This document shows, piece by piece, positions 16,096 through 44,101 of a DNA stretch of 62,007 nt (the stretch's first letter is position 1; each line of letters starts with the position of its first letter). The DNA comes from a virus. Its lineage: Duplodnaviria; Caudoviricetes. The notes beneath the pieces are model-generated. The model worked only from the letters and a program-made list of their open reading frames with translations, was not told where the DNA came from and did no database searches. The translations under genes were made by a program, and so were the position numbers. The stretch is taken from the IMG/VR virus record IMGVR_UViG_3300042307_001090, positions 1-62,007 of that record, one strand, 5' to 3'.

Positions 16096-16302
16096 ATGGC
16101 CGCAACCTACTTCACCAAGGACCGCGACACCGTGGACTCAATCTGCCACGCCTACTATGGGCGCACGTCCGGCGCGGTTGAGCAGGTACTGGAAGCCAAC
16201 GTTGGCCTGGCCGACTACGGGCCCGAGCTGCCGGCCGGCGTGCTGATTGCCCTGCCTGACATCGCCGAGCCGAGCACGCAGGTGGTGCGGCTGTTCGACT
16301 AA
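16096..16302 (+). CDS. Tail protein X (P2 gpX-like)
   Basis: DTVDSICHAYYG....VEQVLEANVGLA..GPELPAG..I.LP. Confidence 0.9.
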   Translation: MAATYFTKDRDTVDSICHAYYGRTSGAVEQVLEANVGLADYGPELPAGVLIALPDIAEPSTQVVRLFD

Positions 16303-16312
16303 TTTTTCAACC

Positions 16313-16546
16313 ATGAATGCTTATTTAGTCCTCAAGCAGCGCGAAGGCTCGGCATCGGTCGAGAGTCAAGGGATTTTTTCAACTCTGGAAAAGGCAAAGG
16401 CTGCGTGCAAAACCGCCGAGGATATTGTGATGACTCACGCCCTTGATCAGGAGCTTCCGCAAGATCGCGTCTTTTGTTGCGACTGCTATCACCCATTATC
16501 CGGAACAGTCATGCGCGCTGGCACGACTGAGTGGGTTCCCGCATGA
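16313..16546 (+). CDS. Hypothetical protein inserted between gpX and gpD
   Basis: 77 aa from ATG 16313; stop overlaps the gpD start (ATGA); more AT-rich than its neighbours. Confidence 0.55.
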   Translation: MNAYLVLKQREGSASVESQGIFSTLEKAKAACKTAEDIVMTHALDQELPQDRVFCCDCYHPLSGTVMRAGTTEWVPA

Positions 16547-17565
16547 CCCCCGCCTACCGCATCATCGCCGAGGGCAAGGACGTGACGGCCAATTTCAATG
16601 GCCGCCTGATTGACCTGGCCATTGTTGACGACTCTGGCAGTCGCGCGGCCGACACGCTTTCAATCGTGGTTGAGGATTCAGGCAGCATGATCGAGGTGCC
16701 AGCAAGCGGTGCCCAGCTCAGGGTTGCTATCGGCTACGCCGGCGCGTTGACCGAAATGGGCGTGTTCGTCGTCGATGAAGTCTCCATTGAAGGGCCGCCG
16801 GACCGGATCACTATTCGCGCGGCCGGCGCCCCGCTGATTAAGTCCGAGCTGTTTGCCCCCCTGCACACTCAGAAGTCGCGCTCATGGCCTACGCCCAGCA
16901 CGCTCGGCGTTCTTGTGGCCGTCATCGCCTACGAGTCGGGGCTGACTGCCGAGCTTTCCAACACCGTGAAGGAAATTCAGCTCCCGCACATCGACCAGAC
17001 CAACGAGTCGGACATCAACCTGCTGACGCGCATCGCCGCCGAGCGGGGCCTGATCGTAAAACCCACGTTCGGGAAAATCGTGGTGCTCTCCATTGACGAG
17101 GCGAAGACCGCGAAGGGCCGCGACATTCCGCGTTTTGCCATTGATAAATCCAGCGTGTCGACGTGGAGCTTCCGCAGTTCAAACCGCAGGCGCTTTCAGT
17201 CGGTGGTCACTTCGTGGCACAACCAGGCTACCGGCCAGCCCGTCGAAGTGGGCGTCGGTTCAGGCGATCCCGTTTATCGATCGACCGTGACTTATGCCAA
17301 CGCGCAGACCGCGCAGGCCGCCGCGTCCTCATTCCTGCGCAATTTCCGGCGCACAGGCACGGAGTTCACGCTGACGATGCCAGGGCAGCCGACATTCATT
17401 GCTGAGGGCCGCGCGACGCTAAGCGGATTCCGCAATGAGATGAATGACGGCGAGTGGAAATTTACCCGGGTTGAGCACCGAATCAGCCGACAGGGCTACA
17501 ACACGGTCGTGACCGGCACCGCGGTCAAAGAGGAGTTGCCGCAGCCTGCGCAGGCCGCCGGATAA
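16543..17565 (+). CDS. Baseplate hub / late control protein D (P2 gpD-like)
   Basis: MTPAYRI..EGKDVT...ADTLSI...HIDQTNESDINLLTR motifs. Confidence 0.9.
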   Translation: MTPAYRIIAEGKDVTANFNGRLIDLAIVDDSGSRAADTLSIVVEDSGSMIEVPASGAQLRVAIGYAGALTEMGVFVVDEVSIEGPPDRITIRAAGAPLIKSELFAPLHTQKSRSWPTPSTLGVLVAVIAYESGLTAELSNTVKEIQLPHIDQTNESDINLLTRIAAERGLIVKPTFGKIVVLSIDEAKTAKGRDIPRFAIDKSSVSTWSFRSSNRRRFQSVVTSWHNQATGQPVEVGVGSGDPVYRSTVTYANAQTAQAAASSFLRNFRRTGTEFTLTMPGQPTFIAEGRATLSGFRNEMNDGEWKFTRVEHRISRQGYNTVVTGTAVKEELPQPAQAAG

Positions 17566-17684
17566 GATGAACCACCGGGCCGTTGCTTTGCATCTGCGCT
17601 GCCTGCGAGTTCACCTCGGGCGCGCATGGTTTGCTGCGCGCGGGGCATGGCGGTCAATGTGGCAGCGTGCCGGTGAATAGGCGC

Positions 17685-17712
17685 AAAAAAGCCTCACTGA
17701 TTGAGGTGAGGC
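17685..17712 (-). terminator. Rho-independent terminator of the leftward operon
   Basis: Stem GCCTCAC/GTGAGGC (17691-17712) with A6 on its left, i.e. U6 on the minus strand, between convergent operons. Confidence 0.65.
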
Positions 17713-17865
17713 GCAGGGATTTTACAACTCGTCTGGGGTTTTAACCCCATAAAAAAAAGTCCACTGGCTTCCAGTTTAGCAGCTTAACGCATGGCCTAAC
17801 CGGAACCGCGCAAAGCTGACTTTTTTACGGTTACTCGGTGGTGTGGCCTGCCTATCTGGAAAATG

Positions 17866-17887
17866 TTCCGCCTACACAACGTTGGGC
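17866..17887 (+). other. attI-like integron recombination site
   Basis: CGCCTAC-ACAAC-GTTGGGC: degenerate L box, 5-bp spacer, GTTRRRY R box. No attC hairpin. Heads the attC array. Confidence 0.5.
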
Positions 17888-17926
17888 AATGGAATCGGAG
17901 CCGTATTGGGCCGTGTTACGGCTAGA

Positions 17927-18652
17927 TTAAAAAAGGGTTGTTTGTGCGGTTTCACGGGCGATGCGTTCTTGCGCGGCCGCGAAGTAGTCGGGATCAAGCT
18001 CGCAGGCCGTCAGGTGTGCGCCGAAATAGTGGCACGCGATTGCGTGCGAGCCGGAGCCGAGGTGCGTATCGAGGATGCGCTGGCCGGGCTTGGCGTAGTT
18101 TTCGAGAAGCCAGCGGTAGAGCTTCACCGGCTTCTGTGTCGGGTGTATCGTGCCCTCTAGCGTGAGTTCTACGCGGTTCATCGTTACCACGCGCAGGGCG
18201 CGGTCGAACGACGTGAAGGCAAGCTCGCCGTCACTGTTACAGATGCGCTGGCCCTTATCCCAAAATATCCACCCCATGCTTTTCGGCAAGTGGCCGGGGT
18301 AGTAGTTCGCGCCCCAGATGATTTGGTCTTTGCTCACGCGGTAGAGTTCGCAGAAGTAGTCAGCGCCGGGCGGCTTGGCGTCCCATCCTTTGTATTCATG
18401 CGCCTTCCTTGCGTAGCTCCTGCCCGGCCTGCACGTTTTTGATTCCGTCGCACCGTCGCGCCCGATGCAGTAGGGCGGATCGACGATAGCCAGATCGAAG
18501 TGCTTGTCGGGATAGCGGCGCATGAGAGCCATGCAGTCTTCGTTGGTCACGGACACAGAGCCCAACCAGGCGCTAGAGCCAACAGCCCTAGTCTCCACGT
18601 TGGCGACCGGCTCAGGGCTTTCGAGAGTCAGGTTTTCAGTTTCTTGTTTCAT
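17927..18652 (-). CDS. DNA N6-adenine/N4-cytosine methyltransferase (cassette 1)
   Basis: DLAIVDPPY, IIWGANY, HPTQKPVKLY, ILDTHLGSGS motifs (beta-type order). Confidence 0.92.
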   Translation of the reverse strand: MKQETENLTLESPEPVANVETRAVGSSAWLGSVSVTNEDCMALMRRYPDKHFDLAIVDPPYCIGRDGATESKTCRPGRSYARKAHEYKGWDAKPPGADYFCELYRVSKDQIIWGANYYPGHLPKSMGWIFWDKGQRICNSDGELAFTSFDRALRVVTMNRVELTLEGTIHPTQKPVKLYRWLLENYAKPGQRILDTHLGSGSHAIACHYFGAHLTACELDPDYFAAAQERIARETAQTTLF

Positions 18653-18691
18653 GTTATTTTGTCGGGCTGCGGCTCAGCTTGAACGTTAGCC
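18560..18691 (+). other. attC site 1 (132 bp)
   Basis: R'' GCCCAAC, 5 nt, L'' GCTAGAGC ... L' GCTCAGC, 6 nt, R' GTTAGCC. Extra base in L''; inner stem CAGCCC/GGGCTG. Confidence 0.85.
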
Positions 18692-19528
18692 AATGCAGAA
18701 ACCGGAAGGCGGCGTCACCGTGATTTGCATGTCGCCAAGCGGAAATTGCGTGACGCCGCGCAGGTGTTTCCGCACGTCCACGGGGTCGGCCTGCGTCTTC
18801 CTGCGGTGCGCCCGCACCCAATGGCAGATTGCCGCCCGTCGCCCTGATTCCGTCATCGGTGCGTCACGAAGCGCGCACAGCTCTTTGATTTTCTCCTCGG
18901 TTGAGTAGAGCGTGAAGGCGGAGGACTCACGAATAGTCACGCTCCAATTCACCTTCATGTCCTCGACTACGGAGGACATGAGCACGAGCGTTTGCGTCAT
19001 CTCTTTTTCTAGGGTGCGTTCGCGCCCCTGAATCACCGCGTTTTTATGTTGGGGCACCGGGCACGATAGCGCGATCTTTCGCGCCTTGTTCCATCCGAAT
19101 ACGTTCACTTGGATGTCTTCGCGGCCCGACTTATACACGGTGCGCTGGCACGAGTCCCAGAATACGTCACACCCTGGTCGGATGAAAGCGCGAGGGCGTG
19201 TCTTCCTCCGCCGCATCCCGTTCCATCGGTAGGCGATTTCACCGCTGCACGCTTGCAGCAGCTCGAACCGCTCGAACTGGTCGGAGGGGTCTGCCATTAA
19301 CATACTGGCGTCAGCACAGAACAGGCGCTCCTCGTTGAAGACATCCTGAAAGAATAAGGGGTTTTCAGGGAGGTATGGTTTTGCATCGTATTCAGTCCAT
19401 ACGAGATCCCACCCGCCGCCTCGCTTTTCGCGGTGCTCCCGTTGTTTGTCGGAGGGTTTGAAGTGAAGCATGGCCATGAGGACTTCATCGGCCACGTCAT
19501 CGACGGCATTTAGTATTTCGGTATTCAT
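18686..19528 (-). CDS. Hypothetical phage protein with C-terminal HWVRAH...VRKHLRG motif (cassette 2)
   Basis: 280 aa ORF; its stop codon is supplied by the R' box of attC site 1. Confidence 0.7.
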   Translation of the reverse strand: MNTEILNAVDDVADEVLMAMLHFKPSDKQREHREKRGGGWDLVWTEYDAKPYLPENPLFFQDVFNEERLFCADASMLMADPSDQFERFELLQACSGEIAYRWNGMRRRKTRPRAFIRPGCDVFWDSCQRTVYKSGREDIQVNVFGWNKARKIALSCPVPQHKNAVIQGRERTLEKEMTQTLVLMSSVVEDMKVNWSVTIRESSAFTLYSTEEKIKELCALRDAPMTESGRRAAICHWVRAHRRKTQADPVDVRKHLRGVTQFPLGDMQITVTPPSGFCIG

Positions 19529-19568
19529 AGGTTTTTGGTTTTCGTAGCGTTAAAAATCGGAAGACGGA

Positions 19569-19628
19569 GGCTAACCAGTCGGTAGAGCACAACGGCGCTA
19601 CGCGCCGTGGCTCACCTTTTTGTTAGCC
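19569..19628 (+). other. attC site 2 (60 bp, classic 59-base element size)
   Basis: GGCTAAC CAGTC GGTAGAGC ACAACGGCGC TAC GCGCCGTG GCTCACC TTTTT GTTAGCC. Confidence 0.9.
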
Positions 19629-19996
19629 AGAGGGAGAACCGACAAGTCCACCTTGGCTCCGGCGTCGAGGTATAGGTTCCATGCGCGGCGTCCGTGGGGC
19701 TTTGATTGGGCTCCCGTGATGTCGCGGTCTTTTGTTGCCATGATCTGCGCGACGCCACCCTCGTCGATGCCTGCGCGTCGTAGTAGGTCATCATAACCAC
19801 ACGAACCGATGTGGTTCATGAGTGCGTCTTTCAGTGCCTCGCCGTCGATAGCTTTGTCCGTCCACGGCACAGCGATCAGATCGAGGTCTGCTGTCACTGT
19901 TCCGTGAATCGCTAGCGCGTAGCCATTATTTCGGGCCACGTCACAAAGCGCAGGATATAGACAGGCGAAGAAGGGTGCGAAGGTTGCAGGTTTCAT
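19598..19996 (-). CDS. Hypothetical protein, possible minimal nucleotidyltransferase fold (cassette 3)
   Basis: GYALAIHGT...DLDLIAVPW and distal VDLS resemble the hG[S/T]..DxD..D NTase pattern. Confidence 0.6.
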   Translation of the reverse strand: MKPATFAPFFACLYPALCDVARNNGYALAIHGTVTADLDLIAVPWTDKAIDGEALKDALMNHIGSCGYDDLLRRAGIDEGGVAQIMATKDRDITGAQSKPHGRRAWNLYLDAGAKVDLSVLPLANKKVSHGA

Positions 19997-20010
19997 GAAA
20001 GGGAGACAGA

Positions 20011-20104
20011 GGCTAACCAGGCGCTACAGCGAACGACCACGCTAGTCACTCAAATGGTTCGGGTGTCGGGGAGAGGTGGTTGTCTCTGAGCTTAAACGTT
20101 GGGC
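20011..20104 (+). other. attC site 3 (94 bp)
   Basis: R'' GGCTAAC, 5 nt, L'' GCTACAGC ... L' TCTGAGC, 6 nt, R' GTTGGGC. Inner stem GACCAC/GTGGTT. Confidence 0.8.
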
Positions 20105-20478
20105 AATGCGGAATCGGACTTGGGAAAGTAGGCCGCCCACTCTGCTAGCGCTGGGCCTCCGCCTTGGTAGCCGTGGCCGCGAGCGCATTCCAAAGCCTTT
20201 GCCACGCGCCATCCTGCTTCTCGCAGCCGTGCGTTCTCGCGCTCAAACTCGGCGCATAGAGCAACTGGAGCCGCATCATAATCCAGCGTCGCACGAGCTT
20301 CGCGGATGGCGCGGCGCAGGCGCTTGGCGGCAGGATTGCATGTGCATGACTCCTCGGTCACTGGCCAATGCTCTTGCTTAAAGTCGATGCAGTTGCCGCT
20401 GTGGCTTGGCTCGAACTGTGCGACCAATGCAAGCAGCAGCTCGCCAAGCGCCTTGGTGTGGGGGTGAATGGCGCTCAT
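20092..20478 (-). CDS. Hypothetical protein
   Basis: Start MSAIHPH overlaps the upstream stop; ends inside attC site 3. Confidence 0.6.
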   Translation of the reverse strand: MSAIHPHTKALGELLLALVAQFEPSHSGNCIDFKQEHWPVTEESCTCNPAAKRLRRAIREARATLDYDAAPVALCAEFERENARLREAGWRVAKALECARGHGYQGGGPALAEWAAYFPKSDSALPNV

Positions 20479-20738
20479 TGGCTGGCCTTTCTCGCGGTGT
20501 CCGGCTTGTGCAGGCACCAAATGCGCGTGCCGCCGTCTGCTTTAACCATTCGCGCAGACCATACCCACCCAGTATTTACCGAGCGGATCGTTGTAAGAAT
20601 TGTGTGAACGCGACTCGGTGAATAATCCTTTATTGGAATCAAAATTGAGTCACCGACATCCATTTGAAGCAGCGGCCATATCGGGTCTCTCGATGAAGCC
20701 CTGCCAGCCATTGGAGGAATATTTTTATCAATCTTCAT
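20475..20738 (-). CDS. Hypothetical small DNA-binding-like phage protein
   Basis: MKIDKNIPP...WPLLQMDVGDSILI...GTRIW pattern common in phages; ATGA-coupled. Confidence 0.65.
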   Translation of the reverse strand: MKIDKNIPPMAGRASSRDPIWPLLQMDVGDSILIPIKDYSPSRVHTILTTIRSVNTGWVWSARMVKADGGTRIWCLHKPDTARKASQ

Positions 20739-25237: not shown

Positions 25238-26056
25238 TTAGGCGGTGCGAACAATGGCGGACGAGACCGGCCAATGGCGAACGCCGGATAACGTGGCGCC
25301 CTCGGGTAGCGACTTCAGCGCGGCCTTTAGCTCGGCGCGCTTCACCGTGAGGGTCACGAGGGATGGATTGATGGCATACAGCGCCGCGATGTCCGTAACC
25401 TCGAAGTCAATGTCATTGCGCGTGCTGACTCCAGAAGGTGTCGCGACCTGCGCGCTGGCGACAACGAGGGCCTGCGCGGCGAGCTGTGCGTCTGCTTTGG
25501 CTTTCGCGGTGGCGGCCTCCTGCTCGGCGCGTAGGCGGGCATCAGCGGCGGCCCGCTCGGCCTGTGCACGTTTCAATGCGTCGGTTTCCTGCGCGGCCTT
25601 TGCGGCGGCTGCGCGTGCATCAGCTTCGGCTTTCTCGCGGGCCTCGCGCGCCTGGCGATCGGCTTCTTCACGGATGCGGCGAGCCTCAGCTTCGGCAGCG
25701 GCACGGGCGGCAGCGGCTTGGCGTTCCTGCTCGGCGTTGAACTCGCCAATTAACAAGCCGATGCGCTTGGCCTCGGCAACGATTTCGGTGGTGAGGTCTT
25801 TTTTGAGCTGGTCGATCTTGCGGCCGAGCTCAAGGACCGGCGCCTTCGCGGTGGCGTGTGAATCGTTGATGGCTTTCTCGAAGGACTTGAGATCGCGCAG
25901 GAGGTTAGTGGCGCGGACGCCAGACTCCGGGCTAGCGATGCGCTGGCCTTTTTTGGCGATGGCAAGCAGCTCGTCGCGCTTGGCGATGGCTGCGGGTAGG
26001 GCCGAGACCTGAGTGGATTCGGCGCCGGTGATGGTAATGAGTGCGTTGGTGTTCAT
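25238..26056 (-). CDS. Ala-rich coiled-coil phage protein (recombination-region type)
   Basis: 272 aa with long E/A/R coiled coil and C-terminal FEVTD domain. Confidence 0.7.
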   Translation of the reverse strand: MNTNALITITGAESTQVSALPAAIAKRDELLAIAKKGQRIASPESGVRATNLLRDLKSFEKAINDSHATAKAPVLELGRKIDQLKKDLTTEIVAEAKRIGLLIGEFNAEQERQAAAARAAAEAEARRIREEADRQAREAREKAEADARAAAAKAAQETDALKRAQAERAAADARLRAEQEAATAKAKADAQLAAQALVVASAQVATPSGVSTRNDIDFEVTDIAALYAINPSLVTLTVKRAELKAALKSLPEGATLSGVRHWPVSSAIVRTA

Positions 26057-27750
26057 GCGAAAGAAAGTTCAGGCTGTTCAATGGTGGTGGTAGTGGTGGT
26101 GGTGGCAGCGGCCTGCACGGTGGACGGTGCGCCGAGCATCGGCAGCGTTCCTGCGCCGACCTGCAGGTTGCGGCCGAAATACTTTGCGGCGGTCTTGTCG
26201 CCCAGCTCTTCAGTCGCCTGAGCGCCGTTGCGAATCCACCCGCGCAGGCGTCCGGTCTCGACGTTGAGCGCGAGGGCAAACTTCTGGTTGAGCCGGATAT
26301 GGATGTTGCGATTGAGGAATGCGCGCACGTCAAACAAGACCTCGCGCTGGCCGTCCACCGTCGCCCAGAACTCCTCGCGAGTGCCGCTCGTCCAGTTGCG
26401 CCGGCCTTGGTAGGTCAGCCGGGCGTCATTGGTGTCACCCATGAAGCCGAGCCCGTGCGCGACCGTCAGCATGTCGCCCATAAAATCAGCGGCGGACTGG
26501 TCGAGGCCGCTATCGTAGGAGCCCGTCGGCCGGACGCCGCCCATGTGCTGAAGCACGATCCGGTACTCAAGCGCGATGTGCGTAGGCTTCTGGTCATCCG
26601 AGCAGTAGCGCCAGCGGTCGAAGGTGAACACCCGCTCGTTCGACTTATAGTTCTTCACGTTGGCCTTGCCGACCATCGAGTCAAAGGTCTCCAGCAGCTG
26701 CTCGTTTATGTGAGTGTTGGCGTTTTTCATCACCCACATAATTACTGCGTGAATATTGGAGACGGAAAAATCAACCGCTCCGGATCGATTGAGCGTGTTG
26801 AGCATCGCCTGGCGCTTCTTGGAGGTGAGCCGGTTGGTCACCGACTTCATGTGCGAGAAAAGCTCCTGCCAGTACGTGTTGCGCAGGCCGGCAAGCCGGG
26901 CCTTGAGGCATCCCATGATCCGGACCGGCGAAACGTCGAACTCCTTAAGCAGGTCAACGTCGAGCTGCTTCACGAGGTCGTAGTTCTTGCGGACGTGGTC
27001 AAGGTCTTCGTTGTAGAGAGCGACCAACAGGTCGGGGTAATTGGCACCAACGACCAGGGCGTCCATCTTGGAGTTCCTGCGGGTGCCCTTTTCATGATCG
27101 CCGACGGTGGCTTTGTCGGCTGAAAACTTCTCGCGCAGGTCAGCAAACTGCGCCTGGGCGAACCGATCAAACGCGTCGTCCTTCTCGCGCGACAGCTCTA
27201 TGCGGATCAGGTGAACCTTGGCGCGGGCTGCGCGGTCCTCGGCGTCGAGAAAATCAAACGAGCCTACGATGTGGTGCTTGGCCTCGCGGTATTCGAGGGC
27301 GTTCTTGATGTCGATCGACGCCTCCCAGCGTTGCGGGATAGCGAGGTAAACAAGGCGCGACGACGACTCGCGAATGATCTTCGTGGCCCAGTCGGCAAAC
27401 TCAGAGTAGGGCGGGTTGCAGAACGTCACCTCGACCTGCTTGGCGACAAGCGACTGTTCGTGAAACTCGGTGCCGACGATGAAGATTTCGTTATCCATTT
27501 GCTCGCAAAGGATCGGCGACTTCTCAATCGCATATAGGGTCGAAAACTTGGCCTTGTCGCGAAGCGCGCGCAGGACCTTGCCATTGCCTGCGCCGATGTC
27601 CAGCACGCTGGAAATGTCGTGATAGGCGCGCCAGTGCGCGTGCCGCATGCTGTCGATGTCGGCGATCAGCTTGGCGATGATCTCGTTGGTGGTCGGGTAG
27701 AACTCGTGGTCTTGACCGGCCTGTTTGAGTTGGGTGACGAGGGCGTTCAT
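26053..27750 (-). CDS. N6-adenine DNA methyltransferase with DUF4942-like domain
   Basis: EFYPT, VLDIGAGNG, FCNPPY, AEDRAARAKV, F.N.NIH motifs. Confidence 0.85.
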   Translation of the reverse strand: MNALVTQLKQAGQDHEFYPTTNEIIAKLIADIDSMRHAHWRAYHDISSVLDIGAGNGKVLRALRDKAKFSTLYAIEKSPILCEQMDNEIFIVGTEFHEQSLVAKQVEVTFCNPPYSEFADWATKIIRESSSRLVYLAIPQRWEASIDIKNALEYREAKHHIVGSFDFLDAEDRAARAKVHLIRIELSREKDDAFDRFAQAQFADLREKFSADKATVGDHEKGTRRNSKMDALVVGANYPDLLVALYNEDLDHVRKNYDLVKQLDVDLLKEFDVSPVRIMGCLKARLAGLRNTYWQELFSHMKSVTNRLTSKKRQAMLNTLNRSGAVDFSVSNIHAVIMWVMKNANTHINEQLLETFDSMVGKANVKNYKSNERVFTFDRWRYCSDDQKPTHIALEYRIVLQHMGGVRPTGSYDSGLDQSAADFMGDMLTVAHGLGFMGDTNDARLTYQGRRNWTSGTREEFWATVDGQREVLFDVRAFLNRNIHIRLNQKFALALNVETGRLRGWIRNGAQATEELGDKTAAKYFGRNLQVGAGTLPMLGAPSTVQAAATTTTTTTIEQPELSFA

Positions 27751-28194: not shown

Positions 28195-28229
28195 AAAAAA
28201 GCCGAGCCATTTTGTAATGGACTCGGCTT
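28195..28229 (-). terminator. Rho-independent terminator
   Basis: GCCGAGCCAT...ATGGACTCGGC hairpin with A-run on its left (U-tract on minus strand). Confidence 0.7.
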
Positions 28230-28236
28230 GTGCGGC

Positions 28237-30102: not shown

Positions 30103-31029
30103 TTACTGATTCAAGGATTTGCTCGCCCAGACAGGCAGATCCAAAGGGAGAACGGCATCGCCGTAGCCTGGCCACTGGCCGGACTCGACGCACGCCGCGT
30201 AGGTAGCGAGGTCGCGGCGATACCGCGCGCGGCCCGCCTCGATCATTTCAGGTGTCGCGACGTAGCAAGCCACCAAGTGCGGAGCGTCATTCTCGACGCA
30301 CACAAAGATGAACTTGCCGTCGATTCCGGTAATGGCCCGGTAACCGTCGAGATAGAAGGCAGCCTGCACGTCGTAGCGGTAGCTCCACGCGTCGCGGCTG
30401 AACGCTTCCGCGCTGGCGTCCTTGGTCGTCTTTACGTCCAAAATGAACTGGTCGCTCGCATGAATCCGGTCGGTTCGTGCCCGGCAGCGAAGGCCGGTAT
30501 CGGGGTCTTGCCAGAACATGGACGCCTCGGTATGGCCGCCAGCCAGTAGCAGGCGCCCGGCGCTCGGGTGCGCCATGAGTGCCGCCTGCACGGCGGACAG
30601 CTTGCCCAACTCGGCGGCGTCCACCATTTCCTTGCCGATGTTCTCGGCGTCAAAGCGTGCCCAGGCGGTGGCGGCCGCGATCACCTCGGGGCGTGGATTC
30701 TTGGCATTCACGCTGCGGGCCTGCGGGCGCTCCGGCATGTGAGGCGGCGTGCACGCAACCTCGTCAGCAAACCGCCCCGGCTCCAACGCGCGCAGGTGCA
30801 CCAGCGTCCCCCAGCGTTGCGCAGGGGTCGGCGTGTGCGGGTTGCGCAAGCCGTGAAGGAACATAGCGGGGCAGCGTGCGATCTTGTGCAGACCGTGCGC
30901 GGAAATCTCAGGGCGGGAGTGGTAAATGTGCGGCGGCATGTCTGTAACGATGCCGTTTAATTCAGCGCTCTCGACGCCAGCTCCGGCAGATAACACATCA
31001 TTTAGGGACTCAAAACTTACGACGCTCAC
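30103..31029 (-). CDS. RecE-like PD-(D/E)XK exonuclease (DUF3799-like)
   Basis: YH...IS..GL, GTLVH..LEP, CRARTD, DVKTT, Y..QAAFY. Confidence 0.9.
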   Translation of the reverse strand: MSVVSFESLNDVLSAGAGVESAELNGIVTDMPPHIYHSRPEISAHGLHKIARCPAMFLHGLRNPHTPTPAQRWGTLVHLRALEPGRFADEVACTPPHMPERPQARSVNAKNPRPEVIAAATAWARFDAENIGKEMVDAAELGKLSAVQAALMAHPSAGRLLLAGGHTEASMFWQDPDTGLRCRARTDRIHASDQFILDVKTTKDASAEAFSRDAWSYRYDVQAAFYLDGYRAITGIDGKFIFVCVENDAPHLVACYVATPEMIEAGRARYRRDLATYAACVESGQWPGYGDAVLPLDLPVWASKSLNQ

Positions 31030-36012: not shown

Positions 36013-36279
36013 ATGAACGACATCAAATCACGAATCGCCGCAGCCTGCGCGAACACCGCGCCGCGCACCAAGGCCCGCAACTTAGCCCTCGCCGCTGTGC
36101 GCTGGGTTATTAAATCAGAGCAGGGAAACGCCTACATAGGGCAGGCCGGCCTTTCCTCCGTCCTTGTCGCCCGCGAGCACGCCACCGTGTTTGATGGCCG
36201 AGACAACGAGGAAATGAAGATCGCTTTTTTACGCGCCATTACCGCAGACTACTCGCTCACCATTGAGCTCGCAGCATGA
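36013..36279 (+). CDS. Hypothetical protein
   Basis: 88 aa; GTTATG start; coupled to the methyltransferase. Confidence 0.65.
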   Translation: MNDIKSRIAAACANTAPRTKARNLALAAVRWVIKSEQGNAYIGQAGLSSVLVAREHATVFDGRDNEEMKIAFLRAITADYSLTIELAA

Positions 36280-37685
36280 ATTACATCGAACTCTTCGCCG
36301 GCGTCGGCGGCATGAGCATGGGGCTTGAGCGCGCAGGATTTAATCCTGTTGCCCTTGTTGAGTGGGATCGTGCCGCCGCTGGCGTGATCGCCCATCGCTT
36401 TCCCGACGTTCCGCTTTATTGCGACGTCACTAAATTTACCGGCGAGGAGGTTGGTGACGCTCGCGTTGACCTCCTTGCTTTTGGTTCACCCTGCCAAGAC
36501 CTGTCTGTCGCAGGCAAACGCGCAGGCCTTAAAGACGGCTCCCGTTCATCCCTTTTTTTCCATGCAATCCGAATCGCAAATCGCCTTCGCCTTCATAACG
36601 GACTCCGCTTTCTGCTCTGGGAAAACGTCGTCGGTGCACTCTCAAGCAATCAAGGAGCGGACTTCGCTTCCGTCCTCGGTGAAATGGTCGACCTTGGGGC
36701 GCGTGACGTCGCGTACCGAGTGCTGGACAGCCAGTGGTTTGGAGTACCCCAGCGACGCCGCCGTGTGTTCGTTGTCGCAGATTTTGGAGGCGAATGCGCC
36801 GCCGAAATACTATCTCTCGCCGAAGGCATGTCGGGGAATCCTCCGCCGAGCAGACAAGCGGGGGAAGGATTTACCCACACACTTAGCGCACGCACTAAAG
36901 GCGGCGGCGGGCTCGGGACCGATACCGAGCTAGACGGCGGATTGATCGCCGCCCGTATGACCGCGTTTGGCGAATACACCGAGGACGGGACTGCATCCAC
37001 GCTTAAACAGCGCGATTACAAGGATGCGACGGACCTCATCGCCCACACCCTGCGCGGCGAAGGCTTTGACGCGTCAGAGGATGGTACGGGGCGCGGGACG
37101 CCGTTGGTCTGCACCCCCATTTTGGAGGCGGGAGCAAAAACCGGCGTAAGCACAACGGATCTTCGTGCCGGTTCTGGAATCGGTAAATCGGGAGATCCTA
37201 TGTTTACCTTGCAGGCCACAAAACAGCATGCGGTTGCATTTTCATGCAAAGACTATGGCACCGATGTCGGTGATCTTGCGCCAACCCTCCGCGCTATGGG
37301 GCACGCAGGGAGCCACCAGAACGGAGGCGGTCAGGTGGCCGTCGCTTTCGCCCAGAATCAAGCCGGGGAGCTGCGCACCTCCGATGTCATGGGCACCCTC
37401 GGCACGAACTCCAACGCGAGTGGTCGCGCAACGCCAATGGTGCAGGCTCCCCAGTCAGGCGTCCGTCGCCTCACCCCAACCGAGTGTGAGCGTCTGCAAG
37501 GCTGGCCTGATTCGCACACTCGATTCCGCCGTGACCTCGTGCTCGATGGCAACCGCTGGCACATTAAACCCGACTCTCCCATCCGCGAGCAGGCCGACGG
37601 GCCGCGTTACAAACAGTGTGGCAACGGGGTGACGAGTTCCGTTGCCTTTTGGATTGCTTCCCGCCTCGTTAAATTTTCCAAGTAA
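36276..37685 (+). CDS. DNA C5-cytosine methyltransferase
   Basis: FAGVGG, GSPCQD, WENV, PQRRRRVF, RRLTP.ECERLQG, YKQCGNGV. Confidence 0.95.
   Translation: MNYIELFAGVGGMSMGLERAGFNPVALVEWDRAAAGVIAHRFPDVPLYCDVTKFTGEEVGDARVDLLAFGSPCQDLSVAGKRAGLKDGSRSSLFFHAIRIANRLRLHNGLRFLLWENVVGALSSNQGADFASVLGEMVDLGARDVAYRVLDSQWFGVPQRRRRVFVVADFGGECAAEILSLAEGMSGNPPPSRQAGEGFTHTLSARTKGGGGLGTDTELDGGLIAARMTAFGEYTEDGTASTLKQRDYKDATDLIAHTLRGEGFDASEDGTGRGTPLVCTPILEAGAKTGVSTTDLRAGSGIGKSGDPMFTLQATKQHAVAFSCKDYGTDVGDLAPTLRAMGHAGSHQNGGGQVAVAFAQNQAGELRTSDVMGTLGTNSNASGRATPMVQAPQSGVRRLTPTECERLQGWPDSHTRFRRDLVLDGNRWHIKPDSPIREQADGPRYKQCGNGVTSSVAFWIASRLVKFSK
36562..36933 (+). CDS. Overlapping (+1 frame) methyltransferase beta-like polypeptide
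   Basis: SLSQILE...KYYLSPKACRGILRRA.KRGK.LP..L..AL, fully nested in the C5 MTase gene; start uncertain. Confidence 0.65.
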   Translation: MQSESQIAFAFITDSAFCSGKTSSVHSQAIKERTSLPSSVKWSTLGRVTSRTECWTASGLEYPSDAAVCSLSQILEANAPPKYYLSPKACRGILRRADKRGKDLPTHLAHALKAAAGSGPIPS

Positions 37686-42059: not shown

Positions 42060-42695
42060 TTGACTCAGCCAGCCAACGTCGCCCAAATCGCGGCGAGCAT
42101 TGAACAAATTGAAACCGAAAAACTAATCCCGTACGCCATGAACGCCAGAACTCACAATGATGCCAACGTCGCCCAAATCGCGGCGAGCATCCGTGAGTTT
42201 GGCTTTACCAACCCGGTGTTGATAGACGGCGAGAACGGAATCATCGCCGGTCACGGCCGCGTCCTTGCCGCGCGTAAGTTGGACATGGTCACGGTGCCGT
42301 GCATTCGCCTGAGTTATATGACGCCGGCGCAGAAGCGCGCCTACGTGATTGCCGACAACAAAATCGCACTGAACTCGGGGTGGGACGAGGAGCTGCTAAA
42401 GGTCGAGCTGGCAACCTTGCGTGACGAAGATTTCAGTCTTGGCGTAACGGGATTTAGCGGAGAAGAGCTGGCTGCGCTACTCACCGCGGCGGAGGATTTG
42501 GAGAACATTGACTCCGACGGCGATGAAGCCAAGGGAGCATCGGTGGAGTACCTAGCCGTAGGCAAATTCAAGATCCCGCTCGACGCTGACGAAGTGCAGT
42601 CAATTACCGGCCTGATTGAAGCCTACGCGCAGGAAGCTGGAACTACTTTCGGTTTCGGCGCGTTCATGGTTCGCAAGATGGAGGGCAGCAAATGA
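42060..42695 (+). CDS. ParB/Srx N-terminal domain protein
   Basis: LIPYA.NARTH...QIAASIREFGFTNPVLID...IIAGHGRVLAA...ADNK; start uncertain. Confidence 0.9.
   Translation: MTQPANVAQIAASIEQIETEKLIPYAMNARTHNDANVAQIAASIREFGFTNPVLIDGENGIIAGHGRVLAARKLDMVTVPCIRLSYMTPAQKRAYVIADNKIALNSGWDEELLKVELATLRDEDFSLGVTGFSGEELAALLTAAEDLENIDSDGDEAKGASVEYLAVGKFKIPLDADEVQSITGLIEAYAQEAGTTFGFGAFMVRKMEGSK
42072..42190 (+). repeat. Exact 29-bp direct repeat (42072-42100, 42162-42190)
   Basis: GCCAACGTCGCCCAAATCGCGGCGAGCAT twice, 90 bp apart, in frame. Confidence 0.95.
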
Positions 42696-44101
42696 AGCCT
42701 GGCCTCCACCTTGATTACGAGATCAAAGACATCGTCGGCGCCGACTACAACCCGCGCCGCATTGATAATGACGCGATTGAAAAACTGAAACACAGCCTGA
42801 GCGTAGTTGGCTGCGCGAAGCCGATTATTGTTCGAGGCCGAACTATTGTTGCGGGCCACCAACGAACCAAGGCATTGCGTGCCATGGGCGTAACACGGGC
42901 GCCGGTTTACTTACTGCCAACCGACGCGAGCACCTACGACGAAGTCCGATTCAATCAGCTGCACAACGGCACGGACTTGGACACCGGCGACGAAAGCGCG
43001 AGAGTGGTTGACGGTCTGCGTGGAGTGCGGGGCTTTACCCAGGTTGAGCCCGACCGACTGAGCGTTAATCAGAAGGCAGCGGGCGCGAATATCCGCCACG
43101 AGATCATGCGGCTCGTCACGATTTACGGATCGTGGGGCGCGTGTGTCGCCAGCGAATCCGGAGAGATTTTTCATGCTGCGCAATACGCTCTGTCGATGAA
43201 AACCATGGGGAAGAAGTGCCTTGTTTACGTGGTGCCAGCGGAGCGTGAAGCCGAAGCGCGCGAGTTGTTAGGGGCGCGATATGGCGTATTTAGTTATGAC
43301 AACCTGCCGCGCGAAACCTACATTCAAACCTTCGCTCAAATGTTCCGCCTGCGCGAAGATGCCGAGCGCGAGAACGCGTCGCCAACTTACGTTGAGCACG
43401 TCATACCGTGGTTGCAGAAAAACCCGGGGGCGCGCGTGCTTGACTTTGGCTGCGGACAGGGAGACTACGTCCGTCGACTATCCTGTGCAGGTCATGCAAT
43501 CCAAGGAATGGAGTTCTTTCGGCGTGCGGCTGGTAAGGACGCAATCGACGTAGCGGCGGTGAATGGCATGGTTGATTCGCTCATCTCATCGCTGAAAACT
43601 GCCGGACGTTTTGACGCAGTGGTTTGCGACTACGTGCTGAATTCTGTGGACACGCAGCAAGCCGAGGACGACGTGCTCACTTGCCTGGCGGCATTCTGTA
43701 AGCCGGGCGGTCAGGTGTTTTTTTCCGGCCGCAAAAAAGAGCGCATCGACTGGCAGGACACGATGAAGACCAACGTAAAGACAAAGCAGATCGGCCAGCG
43801 CTACGTCGAGTTCATCGACGAGCACGGCCTGTCGGCGCTTTATCGGAAGGGGCGGTGGTTCTACCAAAAGTTTCACAGCCGTGACGACATCGCGAATATC
43901 TCGGCCCGGTTTGGCTTTGCGATCACCAAGCACACCGAAAGTGCGGTGGCGTTTCAGCTATCGAGCAAACAATCAAAAACTCCTGCACGCGAATATGTTG
44001 CATCAGCTATTGACCGCGAATTTAATATGCCGCTGAATAGTACAGGACGGCGACTCGGCCGTCATAATGACGTGAAGGAAACTCTTTTATGCCTACTCTA
44101 A
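42692..44101 (+). CDS. ParB-like domain fused to a class I SAM-dependent methyltransferase
   Basis: YNPRRI...IVAGHQR; VLDFGCGQG...FDAVVCDYVLNSV...KPGG. Confidence 0.8.
   Translation: MKPGLHLDYEIKDIVGADYNPRRIDNDAIEKLKHSLSVVGCAKPIIVRGRTIVAGHQRTKALRAMGVTRAPVYLLPTDASTYDEVRFNQLHNGTDLDTGDESARVVDGLRGVRGFTQVEPDRLSVNQKAAGANIRHEIMRLVTIYGSWGACVASESGEIFHAAQYALSMKTMGKKCLVYVVPAEREAEARELLGARYGVFSYDNLPRETYIQTFAQMFRLREDAERENASPTYVEHVIPWLQKNPGARVLDFGCGQGDYVRRLSCAGHAIQGMEFFRRAAGKDAIDVAAVNGMVDSLISSLKTAGRFDAVVCDYVLNSVDTQQAEDDVLTCLAAFCKPGGQVFFSGRKKERIDWQDTMKTNVKTKQIGQRYVEFIDEHGLSALYRKGRWFYQKFHSRDDIANISARFGFAITKHTESAVAFQLSSKQSKTPAREYVASAIDREFNMPLNSTGRRLGRHNDVKETLLCLL

Follow-up and report, generated by a model that had tools for sequence, protein, structure and literature searches.

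We analyzed a 62,007-nt viral genome, referred to below in its whole length as the window, which is a 62-kb myovirus record with a CheckV completeness of 100%. At the far 3′ end of its leftward operon, positions 17738–20104 hold a genuine integron module without an integrase, made up of an attI-type site and, after it, three cassettes that are each closed by an attC site. All three cassette genes (3/3) were antisense to their attC sites, so the canonical arrangement, in which gene and attC share a strand and attC follows the gene's 3′ end, was not seen. The operon is closed by a hairpin and T-run on the minus strand at 17691–17712, detected in a terminator scan, and an A-run opposite makes this terminator bidirectional and shared with the tail operon ending at 17565. 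The original prediction, that the antisense reading frames continue the leftward transcription unit up to a terminator, was thus borne out by their minus-strand position and by this hairpin. The operon's first gene beyond the array, a 142-aa reading frame from the ORF list (20092–20520, minus strand), has final codons that cross the R′ box of attC3, and neither Pfam nor PHROG searches assigned its protein to a family.

The first cassette (17882–18685) encodes an N6/N4 DNA methyltransferase on the minus strand at 17927–18652 (PF01555, E 2.2e-13; phrog_67, E 4.6e-38). Its first 31 codons sit within attC1 and may lie outside the real protein; alternative starts are a TTG at 18564 and a GTG slightly downstream, and another phage has kept the leader within attC but has no methylase there. 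The second cassette (18686–19622) carries a 280-aa reading frame from the ORF list (18686–19528, minus strand), whose TAA stop is the reverse complement of the TTA in the R′ box G|TTAGCC. Its protein belonged to no Pfam or PHROG family and had 13 homologues besides the window's own, 5 of the 13 on contigs of 0.9–1.6 kb. We rejected an AcrVA2-like identity for it, suggested by Atlas clusters (score 0.87, family on 20–38% of members), because Pfam was silent even at E 5. The third cassette (19623–20098) holds a 132-aa gene (19598–19996, minus strand) of a phage-typical family (phrog_35913, E 5.9e-19), whose closest Atlas clusters were 86–87% viral (score 0.95) and whose final 8 codons run into attC2. 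We regard the proteins of cassettes 2 and 3 both as phage-typical.

The three attC sites all lie on the plus strand. The first, attC1 (18560–18691, 132 nt), reads GCCCAAC-CAGGC-GCTAGAGC ... GCTCAGC-TTGAAC-GTTAGCC from its R″ box (GCCCAAC) to its R′ box (GTTAGCC), which is chimeric in that its TTAGCC part belongs to cassette 2. The second, attC2 (19569–19628, 60 nt; R″ GGCTAAC, R′ GTTAGCC), reads GGCTAAC-CAGTC-GGTAGAGC ... GCTCACC-TTTTT-GTTAGCC. The array's last site, attC3 (20011–20104, 94 nt), reads GGCTAAC-CAGGC-GCTACAGC ... (T)CTGAGC-TTAAAC-GTTGGGC, with R″ GGCTAAC, a chimeric R′ GTTGGGC and one L mismatch. A 5′ arm of 20 nt was counted 3 times where chance would give 0.06, and the 3′ motif AACGTTRGSCAATG is exact at 17878, 18682 and 20095. 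The geometry of all three sites is 7-5-8...7-5/6-7, with an 8-nt L″ that has an extra base at position 4 and a 7-nt L′, and the same geometry was found in 18 instances of class 1 attC, representing 15 distinct sites, each at the 3′ end of an annotated resistance cassette. The architecture originally described for these sites stood in its spacers, L boxes and extra base; the strict RYYYAAC/GTTRRRY consensus did not, as GGCTAAC and GTTAGCC are each one position off it.

Rfam at gathering thresholds gave zero matches in the window and hence no attC match, so models were built from class 1 sites. Our own covariance model R2 (not IntegronFinder's) was made from 10 class 1 attC sites of plasmid integrons, none from a phage; a first MAFFT alignment of 15 mixed-length attCs had misaligned L′ boxes and was left out of the models. 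Searched on both strands of the 62-kb window, R2 recovered exactly three attC sites, all on the plus strand and at the positions read by eye in the original prediction, with 34.1 bits for attC1 (E 1.8e-7), 46.7 bits for attC2 (E 1.5e-11) and 26.9 bits for attC3 (E 3.5e-5). Class 1 attCs outside the training set scored 17–29 bits in the same search, and attC2 was also matched by the earlier model R1 (44.6 bits). There was no reverse-strand match at the three sites and no other match with E <1 in the 62 kb, the sole further match up to E 10 being a partial one at 28199–28230 (E = 1). The attC2 bottom strand folds into a textbook hairpin with R, L and central stems and one bulged base (-18.4 kcal/mol, z -4.67), and the minimum-energy folds of attC1 and attC3 were no better than shuffled sequence (bottom-strand z 0.36 and 1.49). 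Across 49 distinct phage and host sites of this family, AAC and GTT were invariant (49/49), 93.7% of cells paired against 23–39% with slid partners, and 15 of 22 pairs had changes on both sides, a count matched by 0 of 500 shuffles.

Orientation of the sites rests on the extra base in L″, on model R2 and on the position of intI in relatives. It had been proposed that each R″ box being the complement of the core site at its own cassette's start is a signature of insertion; the complementarity is real, but it is symmetric and gives no orientation by itself because each ORF segment has inverted 7-mers on both sides. We therefore considered reading the attC sites on the minus strand, where the genes would be sense, a GGCTAAC box would contain the stop of the second gene and GTTGGGC would supply a TTG start. 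This reading was rejected, as it puts the extra base on the wrong arm, had no minus-strand model match and conflicts with the location of intI on the R″ side in a host genome (G011) and two viral contigs (G010 and L017).

Ahead of the first cassette, the attI-type region spans 17738–17887 on the plus strand, with a core at 17866–17887 that reads TTCCGCCTACACAAC-GTTGGGC and an expected crossover between G17881 and T17882. The simple site ending in GTTGGGC at 17881–17887 that had been noted here is present and is not an attC; we regard it rather as attI-type, on the grounds of its host intI match and of the covariance model, which found no attC-type match in the region. A degenerate attC extending from GCCTAAC at 17794 to this GTTGGGC was rejected for its lack of L pairing and of a model match and for a fold with z -0.82. 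Window positions 17866–17890 were 92% identical over 25 nt to a stretch upstream of a host intI, and one Opitutaceae integrase lineage carries the attI TTCCGACTACACAAC|GTT; in sequence, the phage core matches the attI adjoining one host integron integrase lineage. A metagenome scan placed 21 of 61 loci in this attI group; in 8 of these the DNA reached 860 nt or more upstream, and IntI lay there in 7, the eighth being a phage contig. The sequence after GTT was highly variable, with 18 distinct sequences among 20 attI-group loci. About 200 nt before the arrays are conserved in 8 phage contigs, and an alignment of 8 phage contigs showed the terminator hairpin kept at the same place. No promoter-like site was detected in the attI-type region.

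The original prediction also held that the phage lacks a tyrosine recombinase in an apparently complete genome, and this was upheld by the completeness estimate and by a six-frame search of the whole 62-kb record that yielded no match to PF00589 or TIGR02249. A cluster of attC sites lacking an integron integrase (CALIN) is recognized by two or more neighboring attC sites that have no intI in their vicinity, and the window, with three attCs inside 1.6 kb and a record free of TIGR02249 and PF00589 matches, is such a cluster. Of the parts of a complete integron, in which intI stands beside attI and an array, it has what appears from its likeness to a host site to be an attI at the head of the array (core 17866–17887), and the integrase is absent. 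Close relatives of this phage were sought in three ways: a nucleotide search of GenBank phages gave short tail-gene matches only, the tail protein gpD retrieved 59 loci in viral contigs with 33% identity at best, and a 24-nt backbone pattern retrieved 0 metagenome contigs.

The attC family of the window was found in 115 bacterial genome stretches, mostly from Opitutaceae and other Verrucomicrobiota. All 5 tested genomes bearing this family had an integron integrase over the curated cut-off, as did 65 of 151 Opitutaceae genomes, and in one such host genome a minus-strand intI precedes a series of at least 18 plus-strand attCs. Five host genomes have an integrase class with lower scores; four of the contigs stop 0.3–2 kb past intI, and none of the five genomes gave a readable array. 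The region around the second integrase of genome G013 had no attC match. An attC cluster in genome G012 (288–308 kb) was considered as a prophage and rejected, since most of its ORFs share the strand of the attCs and repeated 421-aa ORFs are among them. The attC and attI families, together with weak terminase matches (4/151 genomes, best 45% identity), suggest that the phage probably infects Opitutaceae (Verrucomicrobiota). None of the phage cassette proteins was found in 437 kb of host loci.

We found the same attC family in 10 other viral contigs. Model matches numbered 52 over 17 loci, some of them overlapping, and fell on one strand per locus; sites of the window resembled some of these closely, attC1 being 90.5% identical to an attC of viral record G003 and attC3 95% identical to one of another viral contig. 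The whole module of terminator, attI-type region and array was present in 8 contigs of dissimilar phages, with different cassettes in each. Two viral contigs other than the window, G010 and L017, neither close to this phage, carry an integron integrase. In the 66-kb record G010 (CheckV 100%), the integrase (TIGR02249, 266.5 bits; cut-off 265) sits between packaging and structural genes, the attCs are directed away from it, and the ORF of the first cassette, at least, shares the direction of intI. The integrase of L017 is 74–78% identical to that of G010 and has intact RKHRHY positions and the integron-specific insert, and by tblastn the integron integrases in the phage records Shewanella phage vB_SspM_M16-3 and Virus Rctr41k are 38–40% identical to G010's.

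Gene polarity separates the two groups of arrays. In host arrays the longer ORF was sense in 23 of 24 cassettes, which confirms the premise that cassette genes normally follow the direction of attC within this very family, and Pfam matches fell on 5 of 22 sense ORFs compared with 0 of 17 antisense ones. Of 30 cassettes in phage arrays, 22 had the longer ORF antisense and 8 had it sense. PHROG matched 7 of the 30 antisense ORFs, the window's methylase coming in addition, and 0 of the 28 sense ORFs. The contrast between antisense phage arrays and sense host arrays is real. A tentative proposal, which we hold to be possible more than probable, is that Opitutaceae phages maintain their own cassette pool with opposite gene polarity, using the recombination grammar of the host (its attC family and host-cognate attI) and in some cases an integrase of their own at the operon end, so that polarity would act as an expression filter. 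If so, a phage cassette in a host integron would be silent, as would a host cassette such as a defense gene in a phage, and one enzyme could still shuffle genes for both sides.

We favor, with reasonable though far from complete confidence, the explanation that this integrase-less module, with host-family attC and attI sites and reversed cassettes, is worked by an integrase supplied in trans. An integron integrase would bind the folded bottom strand of attC together with the attI site and would insert, excise or reorder cassettes at G|TT; its source could be the host chromosome or a co-infecting phage carrying its own intI. Action of a host integrase in trans is plausible. Points against the explanation are that four lake metagenome runs gave no joint across the cassettes, that the searches retrieved no close relative for a comparison of arrays, that the 437 kb of host loci contained no phage cassette protein, and that attC1 and attC3 fold no better than shuffled sequence. 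Under the reversed polarity, attC stands upstream of its gene in the mRNA sense and the recombinogenic bottom strand is the coding strand, and as a result the cassette genes would be transcribed with the phage operon up to the 17691–17712 terminator.

The traces of past exchange bear on this explanation and on its strongest competitor, in which descendants of attC serve as portable short homologies and phage enzymes swap modules between co-infecting phages with no integrase involved, a reading we think unlikely but worth serious attention. The homologies would be the conserved 20-nt arms (R″-spacer-L″ and L′-spacer-R′) that flank each gene. Two phage contigs share an RNA ligase cassette, the best resolved of all, whose ORF segment is 98.9% identical (692/700); identity is no more than 64.8% for its own attC and 38.5% for the attC upstream, with breaks at both R′ and R″. 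Recombination by an integrase on the bottom strand alone would give breaks at R′ only, so this cassette departs from the unit of ORF plus attC, and breaks in both arms are what swapping by homology would produce. A second shared block of 358 nt at 97% likewise runs from exactly the R″ of one attC to the R′ of the next, and most blocks common to contigs are the ~100-nt attCs alone. Candidate enzymes are present as well: the window encodes an exonuclease VIII-like PD-(D/E)XK nuclease (30103–31029) with an adjoining AAA_24 protein, and G010 an exonuclease VIII-like nuclease and a RecT-like protein. The R″ breaks are also possible, however, from occasional top-strand integrase events, and homology swapping leaves unexplained the attI-type core, the attC asymmetry (bulge, 5 versus 5/6 spacers) kept with compensatory changes across 49 sites and the intact integron integrases in some of these phages. 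We infer that integrase recombination, rather than homologous exchange, acts on the phage and shaped the array. The expectation that related contigs would differ in cassette content held for dissimilar phages, and the expectation of junctions at G|TT alone did not hold for the RNA ligase cassette. As a separate observation, 86 of 138 block ends fell within 12 nt of an attC end (5.4% expected), a statistic that is largely trivial because most shared blocks are attCs themselves and overlapping loci were counted twice.

Less probable again is that the module is an inert relic, its attI and cassettes captured once by illegitimate or homologous recombination and its hairpins at most RNA structures in the transcript. 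The genome has no integrase, for two of the three sites the fold is no more stable than that of shuffles, and no joint across cassettes occurred among contigs from four metagenome runs of lake samples. In run X2 the region is covered by contigs over its full length, and in runs X3 and X4 both flanks were present at high identity with most of 17840–19945 uncovered, a gap from which nothing follows. At some loose ends attC2 and attC3 have different flanks, which diverge at 19564/19629 and 20011–20015 and may come from other organisms. A single capture fits poorly with the recurrence of one module, differently filled, in those 8 contigs, with sites that keep full model scores equal to or above those of working class 1 attCs, and with a systematic reversal of polarity that points to selection within phages and not to one capture from a sense host array. 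We consider it highly improbable that the repeats are terminators or REP-like elements resembling attC by chance: the one-base departures from the strict consensus and the terminator-like score of the attC2 plus strand would suit this, but a model built from unrelated plasmid attCs matches the three sites strand-specifically and nothing else, and the identical family is arrayed beside intI in bacterial chromosomes.

Integrons are known as bacterial gene-capture devices, and clusters of attC in phages were first reported in 2023 as rare features of cultured phages. The module described here recurs, each time with a different cargo, among uncultured and otherwise dissimilar phages of a single bacterial family, and the match of a phage attI to a host integrase lineage makes an integrase in trans a concrete, testable proposal. 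If the polarity rule is true, virus and host would share one recombination system and keep their expressed gene pools apart, and the phage arrays would be a good hunting ground for anti-defense genes such as orphan methyltransferases.

Among known systems, Vibrio superintegrons contain inverted cassettes that mostly encode toxin-antitoxin systems with their own promoters, a scattered, self-expressed minority within a sense array. The window shares antisense genes with these and differs in that its whole array is antisense and would be read through from the phage operon. Class 1 mobile integrons (aadA1, aadA2, cmlA1, aac(6′)-IIc and others) have attCs with the same R″-5-L″...L′-5/6-R′ architecture and comparable scores, and the cmlA1 attC has GCCCAAC, GCTGCAGC and GCTGAGC-like boxes in common with the window's sites; unlike those integrons, the window carries cargo other than resistance genes, in reversed polarity and without expression driven by Pc. 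The sedentary chromosomal integrons of Opitutaceae (such as those of Nibricoccus genomes G011 and G012) share the attC family and its geometry and, in one integrase lineage, the attI core, but they have intI beside attI and sense genes, whereas the window has no intI and only antisense genes. Shewanella phage vB_SspM_M16-3, which is discussed by Qi et al. (2023, Front Microbiol, PMC9892861), and Virus Rctr41k resemble G010 and L017 in carrying an integron integrase inside a phage record. The closest precedent is that same survey, in which 10,705 NCBI phage genomes yielded 17 CALINs in temperate and virulent phages, and attC sites of virulent phages, from families other than the window's, recombined with attI1 under IntI1 in assays (PMC9892861). 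Those CALINs agree with ours in having attC arrays without intI, N6_N4 methyltransferase cassettes and a proposed integrase in trans. They differ in that cassette direction was usual or mixed, and in the parts of that paper available to us we found no mention of genes antisense to attC, of a cognate attI in integrase-less phages or of Verrucomicrobiota phages. Integrase-less attC clusters in phages are thus already published (PMC9892861); judged against those parts, what is new here is the reversed polarity, the host-matched attI and the link to a host.

Three sites with full attC architecture were found in the window at 18560-18691 (attC1), 19569-19628 (attC2) and 20011-20104 (attC3), and on inspection they read exactly as the original prediction had described. 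Their common 20-nt 5' arm occurs three times in the window against 0.06 expected. Because an Rfam scan of the window gave no attC match, we built our own covariance models from class 1 integrons, which were pulled from plasmids by tblastn, probing with a related viral contig's integrase; the training attCs were located at the 3' ends of annotated cassettes (e.g., aadA1, aadA2, aadA16, cmlA1, aac(6')-IIc, and catB3), giving one model of seven 60-nt sites (R1) and one of ten sites (R2), with zero phage sites in either. Searched against both strands, R2 bore out all three sites on the plus strand, at 46.7 bits for attC2 (E 1.5e-11), 34.1 bits for attC1 (E 1.8e-7), and 26.9 bits for attC3 (E 3.5e-5); class 1 attCs held out of its training reached 17.3-29 bits in the same search, and the sole further match in the window up to E 10 was partial (28199-28230, E = 1). 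The window sites share the class 1 geometry of R'', 5 nt, 8-nt L'', a variable part, 7-nt L', 5-6 nt, and R', including the extra base at position 4 of L''. The expected hairpin is formed by attC2 (z -4.67); whole-molecule folds of attC1 and attC3 were not better than shuffled sequence, which is a weakness of the attC reading.

Ten other viral contigs carry the 5' arm pattern, at 14 loci and several times per contig, and R2 gave 52 matches over 17 loci, some of these loci overlapping, always on a single strand per locus. When 49 distinct sites (phage contigs plus one host array) are aligned, pairing covers 93.7% of cells, falling to 23-39% after a shift of the partners by 1-3 columns, and both sides change in 15 of 22 pairs, equalled by none of 500 shuffles, though this alignment is biased towards structure because it was fitted to the model. 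Judged by their proteins, the phages sharing this attC family are not close kin: matches with the window number one, weak, in the viral record G010 and four in another, G003. A bacterial genome collection held 115 stretches with the 5' arm pattern, overwhelmingly in assemblies of Opitutaceae and other Verrucomicrobiota, with long runs in two Nibricoccus chromosomes. An integron integrase above the curated cut-off was detected in all five attC-bearing genomes tested and in 65 of 151 sampled Opitutaceae genomes; in the Nibricoccus genome G011, at least 18 plus-strand attCs come after a minus-strand intI.

Several other features of these arrays were observed. The stretch around attC3 (19946-20179) has a summed contig depth about 10 times that of its flanks (about 50 vs about 5) in the lake metagenome runs X2 and X3, so the attC3 type is highly repeated in those communities. 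Host-family genomes G013, G059, G080, G081, G106, G107, G122, and G135, to which the Opitutaceae hits led, have a second, lower-scoring integron integrase class with scores of about 240-275 bits and open frames of 343-410 aa, like the phage-borne integrase in both score and length; in four of five fetched regions (L225-L229), the contig stops 0.3-2 kb past intI, as if assembly broke at repeats. The host attC cluster at L158 (G012:C1:288001-308000, Nibricoccus), which lacks a nearby integrase, is broken up by a 421-aa ORF that occurs four times, each copy on the opposite strand; these are probably insertion sequences that have landed among the attCs.

Integrases are also carried by phages with this attC family. 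G010 (66,462 bases, CheckV 100%) encodes one of 326 aa between the large terminase and structural genes, scoring 266.5 bits against TIGR02249 (cut-off 265) despite an NN gap; this gap (L015:1950-1960) replaces about 16 codons and takes in part of the conserved region following the first catalytic arginine. The ungapped integrase of another viral contig, L017, is 74-78% identical to that of G010 and has all six catalytic positions and the integron-specific insert. A GTTAGGC core lies 43 nt from the G010 integrase start, the attCs point away from intI, and the first cassette ORF, the sole one read, is codirectional with intI, so intI, where present, ends the cassette-reading operon at its downstream end.

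By its sequence, the window site at 17881 is predicted to be of the attI type. Eight viral contigs conserve about 200 nt in front of their arrays, running from the terminator to GTTGGGC, and they cease to be similar just past GTT. The final 25 nt of this region are 92% identical to a stretch upstream of a host intI, with a 23/23 match in contig L012 and a weak extension of the window-host alignment over ~80 nt. A metagenome scan placed the 18-nt core at 61 loci, 21 of which form one group with common upstream sequence. Eight loci in this group have at least 860 nt of upstream DNA: seven carry a host-type integrase on the opposite strand (71-83% identical to that of G012), and the eighth, from a phage, has the conserved region in place of the integrase. 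Past GTT, 18 distinct continuations were found in 20 loci, and with its adjoining intI this group looks like an active attI. The remaining 40 core loci (L232-L289) fall outside this group: they make up other conserved sequence families, of which the three large ones have 18, 7, and 4 copies (e.g., ...GTTAGCCGATTCCGACTACACAACGTTACTATTGG...), along with single loci, and showed no integrase beside them. Aligned across the eight phage contigs (A4), window 17680-17800 includes the terminator hairpin as well as a TTTACAA motif and the perfect palindrome GGGGTTTTAACCCC, and no promoter of sigma-70 type scored in this stretch.

The window comprises the entire IMG/VR virus record (62,007 bases, 100% complete by CheckV), and PHROG and Pfam scans show a myovirus. 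Packaging and head genes (small and large terminase, portal, major head protein) lie at 44.5-53.5 kb, and tail genes run from baseplate and fibre (57-61 kb) on to tape measure, gpU, and gpD (0-17.6 kb). A leftward block at 17.9-31.7 kb encodes an exonuclease VIII-like nuclease, an AAA_24 protein, a lytic transglycosylase, and methyltransferases, and replication genes run rightward. The array sits at the meeting point of two operons: the plus-strand tail operon, whose end is at 17565, and the leftward one, closed by a minus-strand terminator (17691-17712). As originally predicted, this complete genome has no tyrosine recombinase: six-frame searches of the whole window with PF00589 and TIGR02249 gave no match, and none of 64 scanned ORFs matched an integrase or transposase family at E 1e-5. 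DNA modification genes occur at 17927-18652, 26053-27750, 36276-37682, and 42060-44098; beyond the cassette methylase, the phage encodes a DUF4942-type methyltransferase and a 469-aa DNA methyltransferase, its ParB-like proteins match ParB-methyltransferase fusion families, and it invests heavily in DNA modification. Contigs of lake runs X3 and X4 join 16301 to 16543, skipping 241 nt, so the 99-aa ORF at 16247-16546, between the baseplate hub gene and gpD, is missing from some relatives.

The window module holds all that an integrase needs, the enzyme excepted. The likely hosts, Opitutaceae, commonly encode an integron integrase, which, supplied in trans, would act on the phage attI and attC sites; since these hosts commonly encode the enzyme and one host lineage shares the attI core, such action on the window array would be a reasonable mechanism. 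Comparative traces of recombination are mixed. In related contigs, breaks fall at R'' as well as at R', and no joint across the window cassettes was found in contigs of four lake metagenome runs. Canonical bottom-strand integrase recombination breaks at R' only; breaks at R'' would require either rare top-strand events or homologous exchange in the conserved attC arms. Homologous exchange would fit an RNA ligase cassette that in two contigs is 98.9% identical in its ORF segment, 64.8% in its own attC, and 38.5% in the upstream attC, as well as a 358-nt block, shared at 97%, whose bounds are R'' of one attC and R' of the following one, and these phages encode nucleases and annealing proteins for it. 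No phage cassette proteins were shared with 437 kb of host loci.

As observed, every R'' is complementary to the core that opens its own cassette, but the relation is symmetric, because inverted 7-mers flank every ORF segment, and it holds equally on the minus strand. Three independent lines of sequence comparison decide for attC sites predicted on the plus strand: the extra base lies on the same arm as in class 1 sites, R2 found no minus-strand match at the window sites, and in integrase-bearing genomes of this attC family the intI gene is located on the R'' side and its transcription leads away from the cassettes. These rule out sites on the minus strand, a reading that would make the genes sense and place the ORF2 stop in a GGCTAAC box, with a methylase start possible at TTG of GTTGGGC.

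With the attCs on the plus strand, all three window cassette genes are antisense to them by ORF list, Pfam, and PHROG, as had been claimed. Among 30 distinct cassettes on phage contigs, the longer ORF is antisense in 22 and eight are ambiguous or maybe sense; PHROG matched 0 of 28 sense and 7 of 30 antisense ORFs (two of the seven being one RNA ligase cassette), plus the window's methylase. In host arrays, 24 cassettes have an ORF of at least 45 aa, and in 23 of them the longer ORF is sense; Pfam, with four duplicate ORFs removed beforehand, matched 5 of 22 sense ORFs (three distinct families) and 0 of 17 antisense ORFs. The reversal therefore belongs to the phage arrays and not to the attC family.

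We also observed that attC1 (132 nt) holds a start codon and a conserved ~31-codon leader (MKQETENLTLESP..., window 18560-18652) in frame with the methyltransferase. In G003 (L004:1928-2050), the leader within a 90.5% identical attC forms an ORF of its own, 40 codons long, in front of an unrelated gene, and a short binned contig (L076:385-483) has a third copy; the leader may be a small gene or an attC-borne translation-initiation module. Five of 13 homologues of ORF2 (280 aa, 18686-19528) are on 0.9-1.6 kb contigs, about single-cassette size, which suggests assemblies breaking at the flanking attC repeats. ORF2 has a weak Atlas lead to AcrVA2-like viral clusters (score 0.87), not confirmed by Pfam.

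Full-text literature searches, including a term search of the accessible text of Qi et al. 2023 (PMC9892861), returned nothing on reversed gene polarity of a whole array, a host-cognate attI kept in integrase-less phages, a module recurring in dissimilar phages of one host family, or an integrase at the end of the cassette-reading operon. The core idea is already published: in the portions available, that paper reports 17 integrase-less attC clusters and a few integrons in 10,705 NCBI phage genomes, methyltransferase cassettes among the clusters, and phage attCs that are IntI1 substrates in recombination assays.
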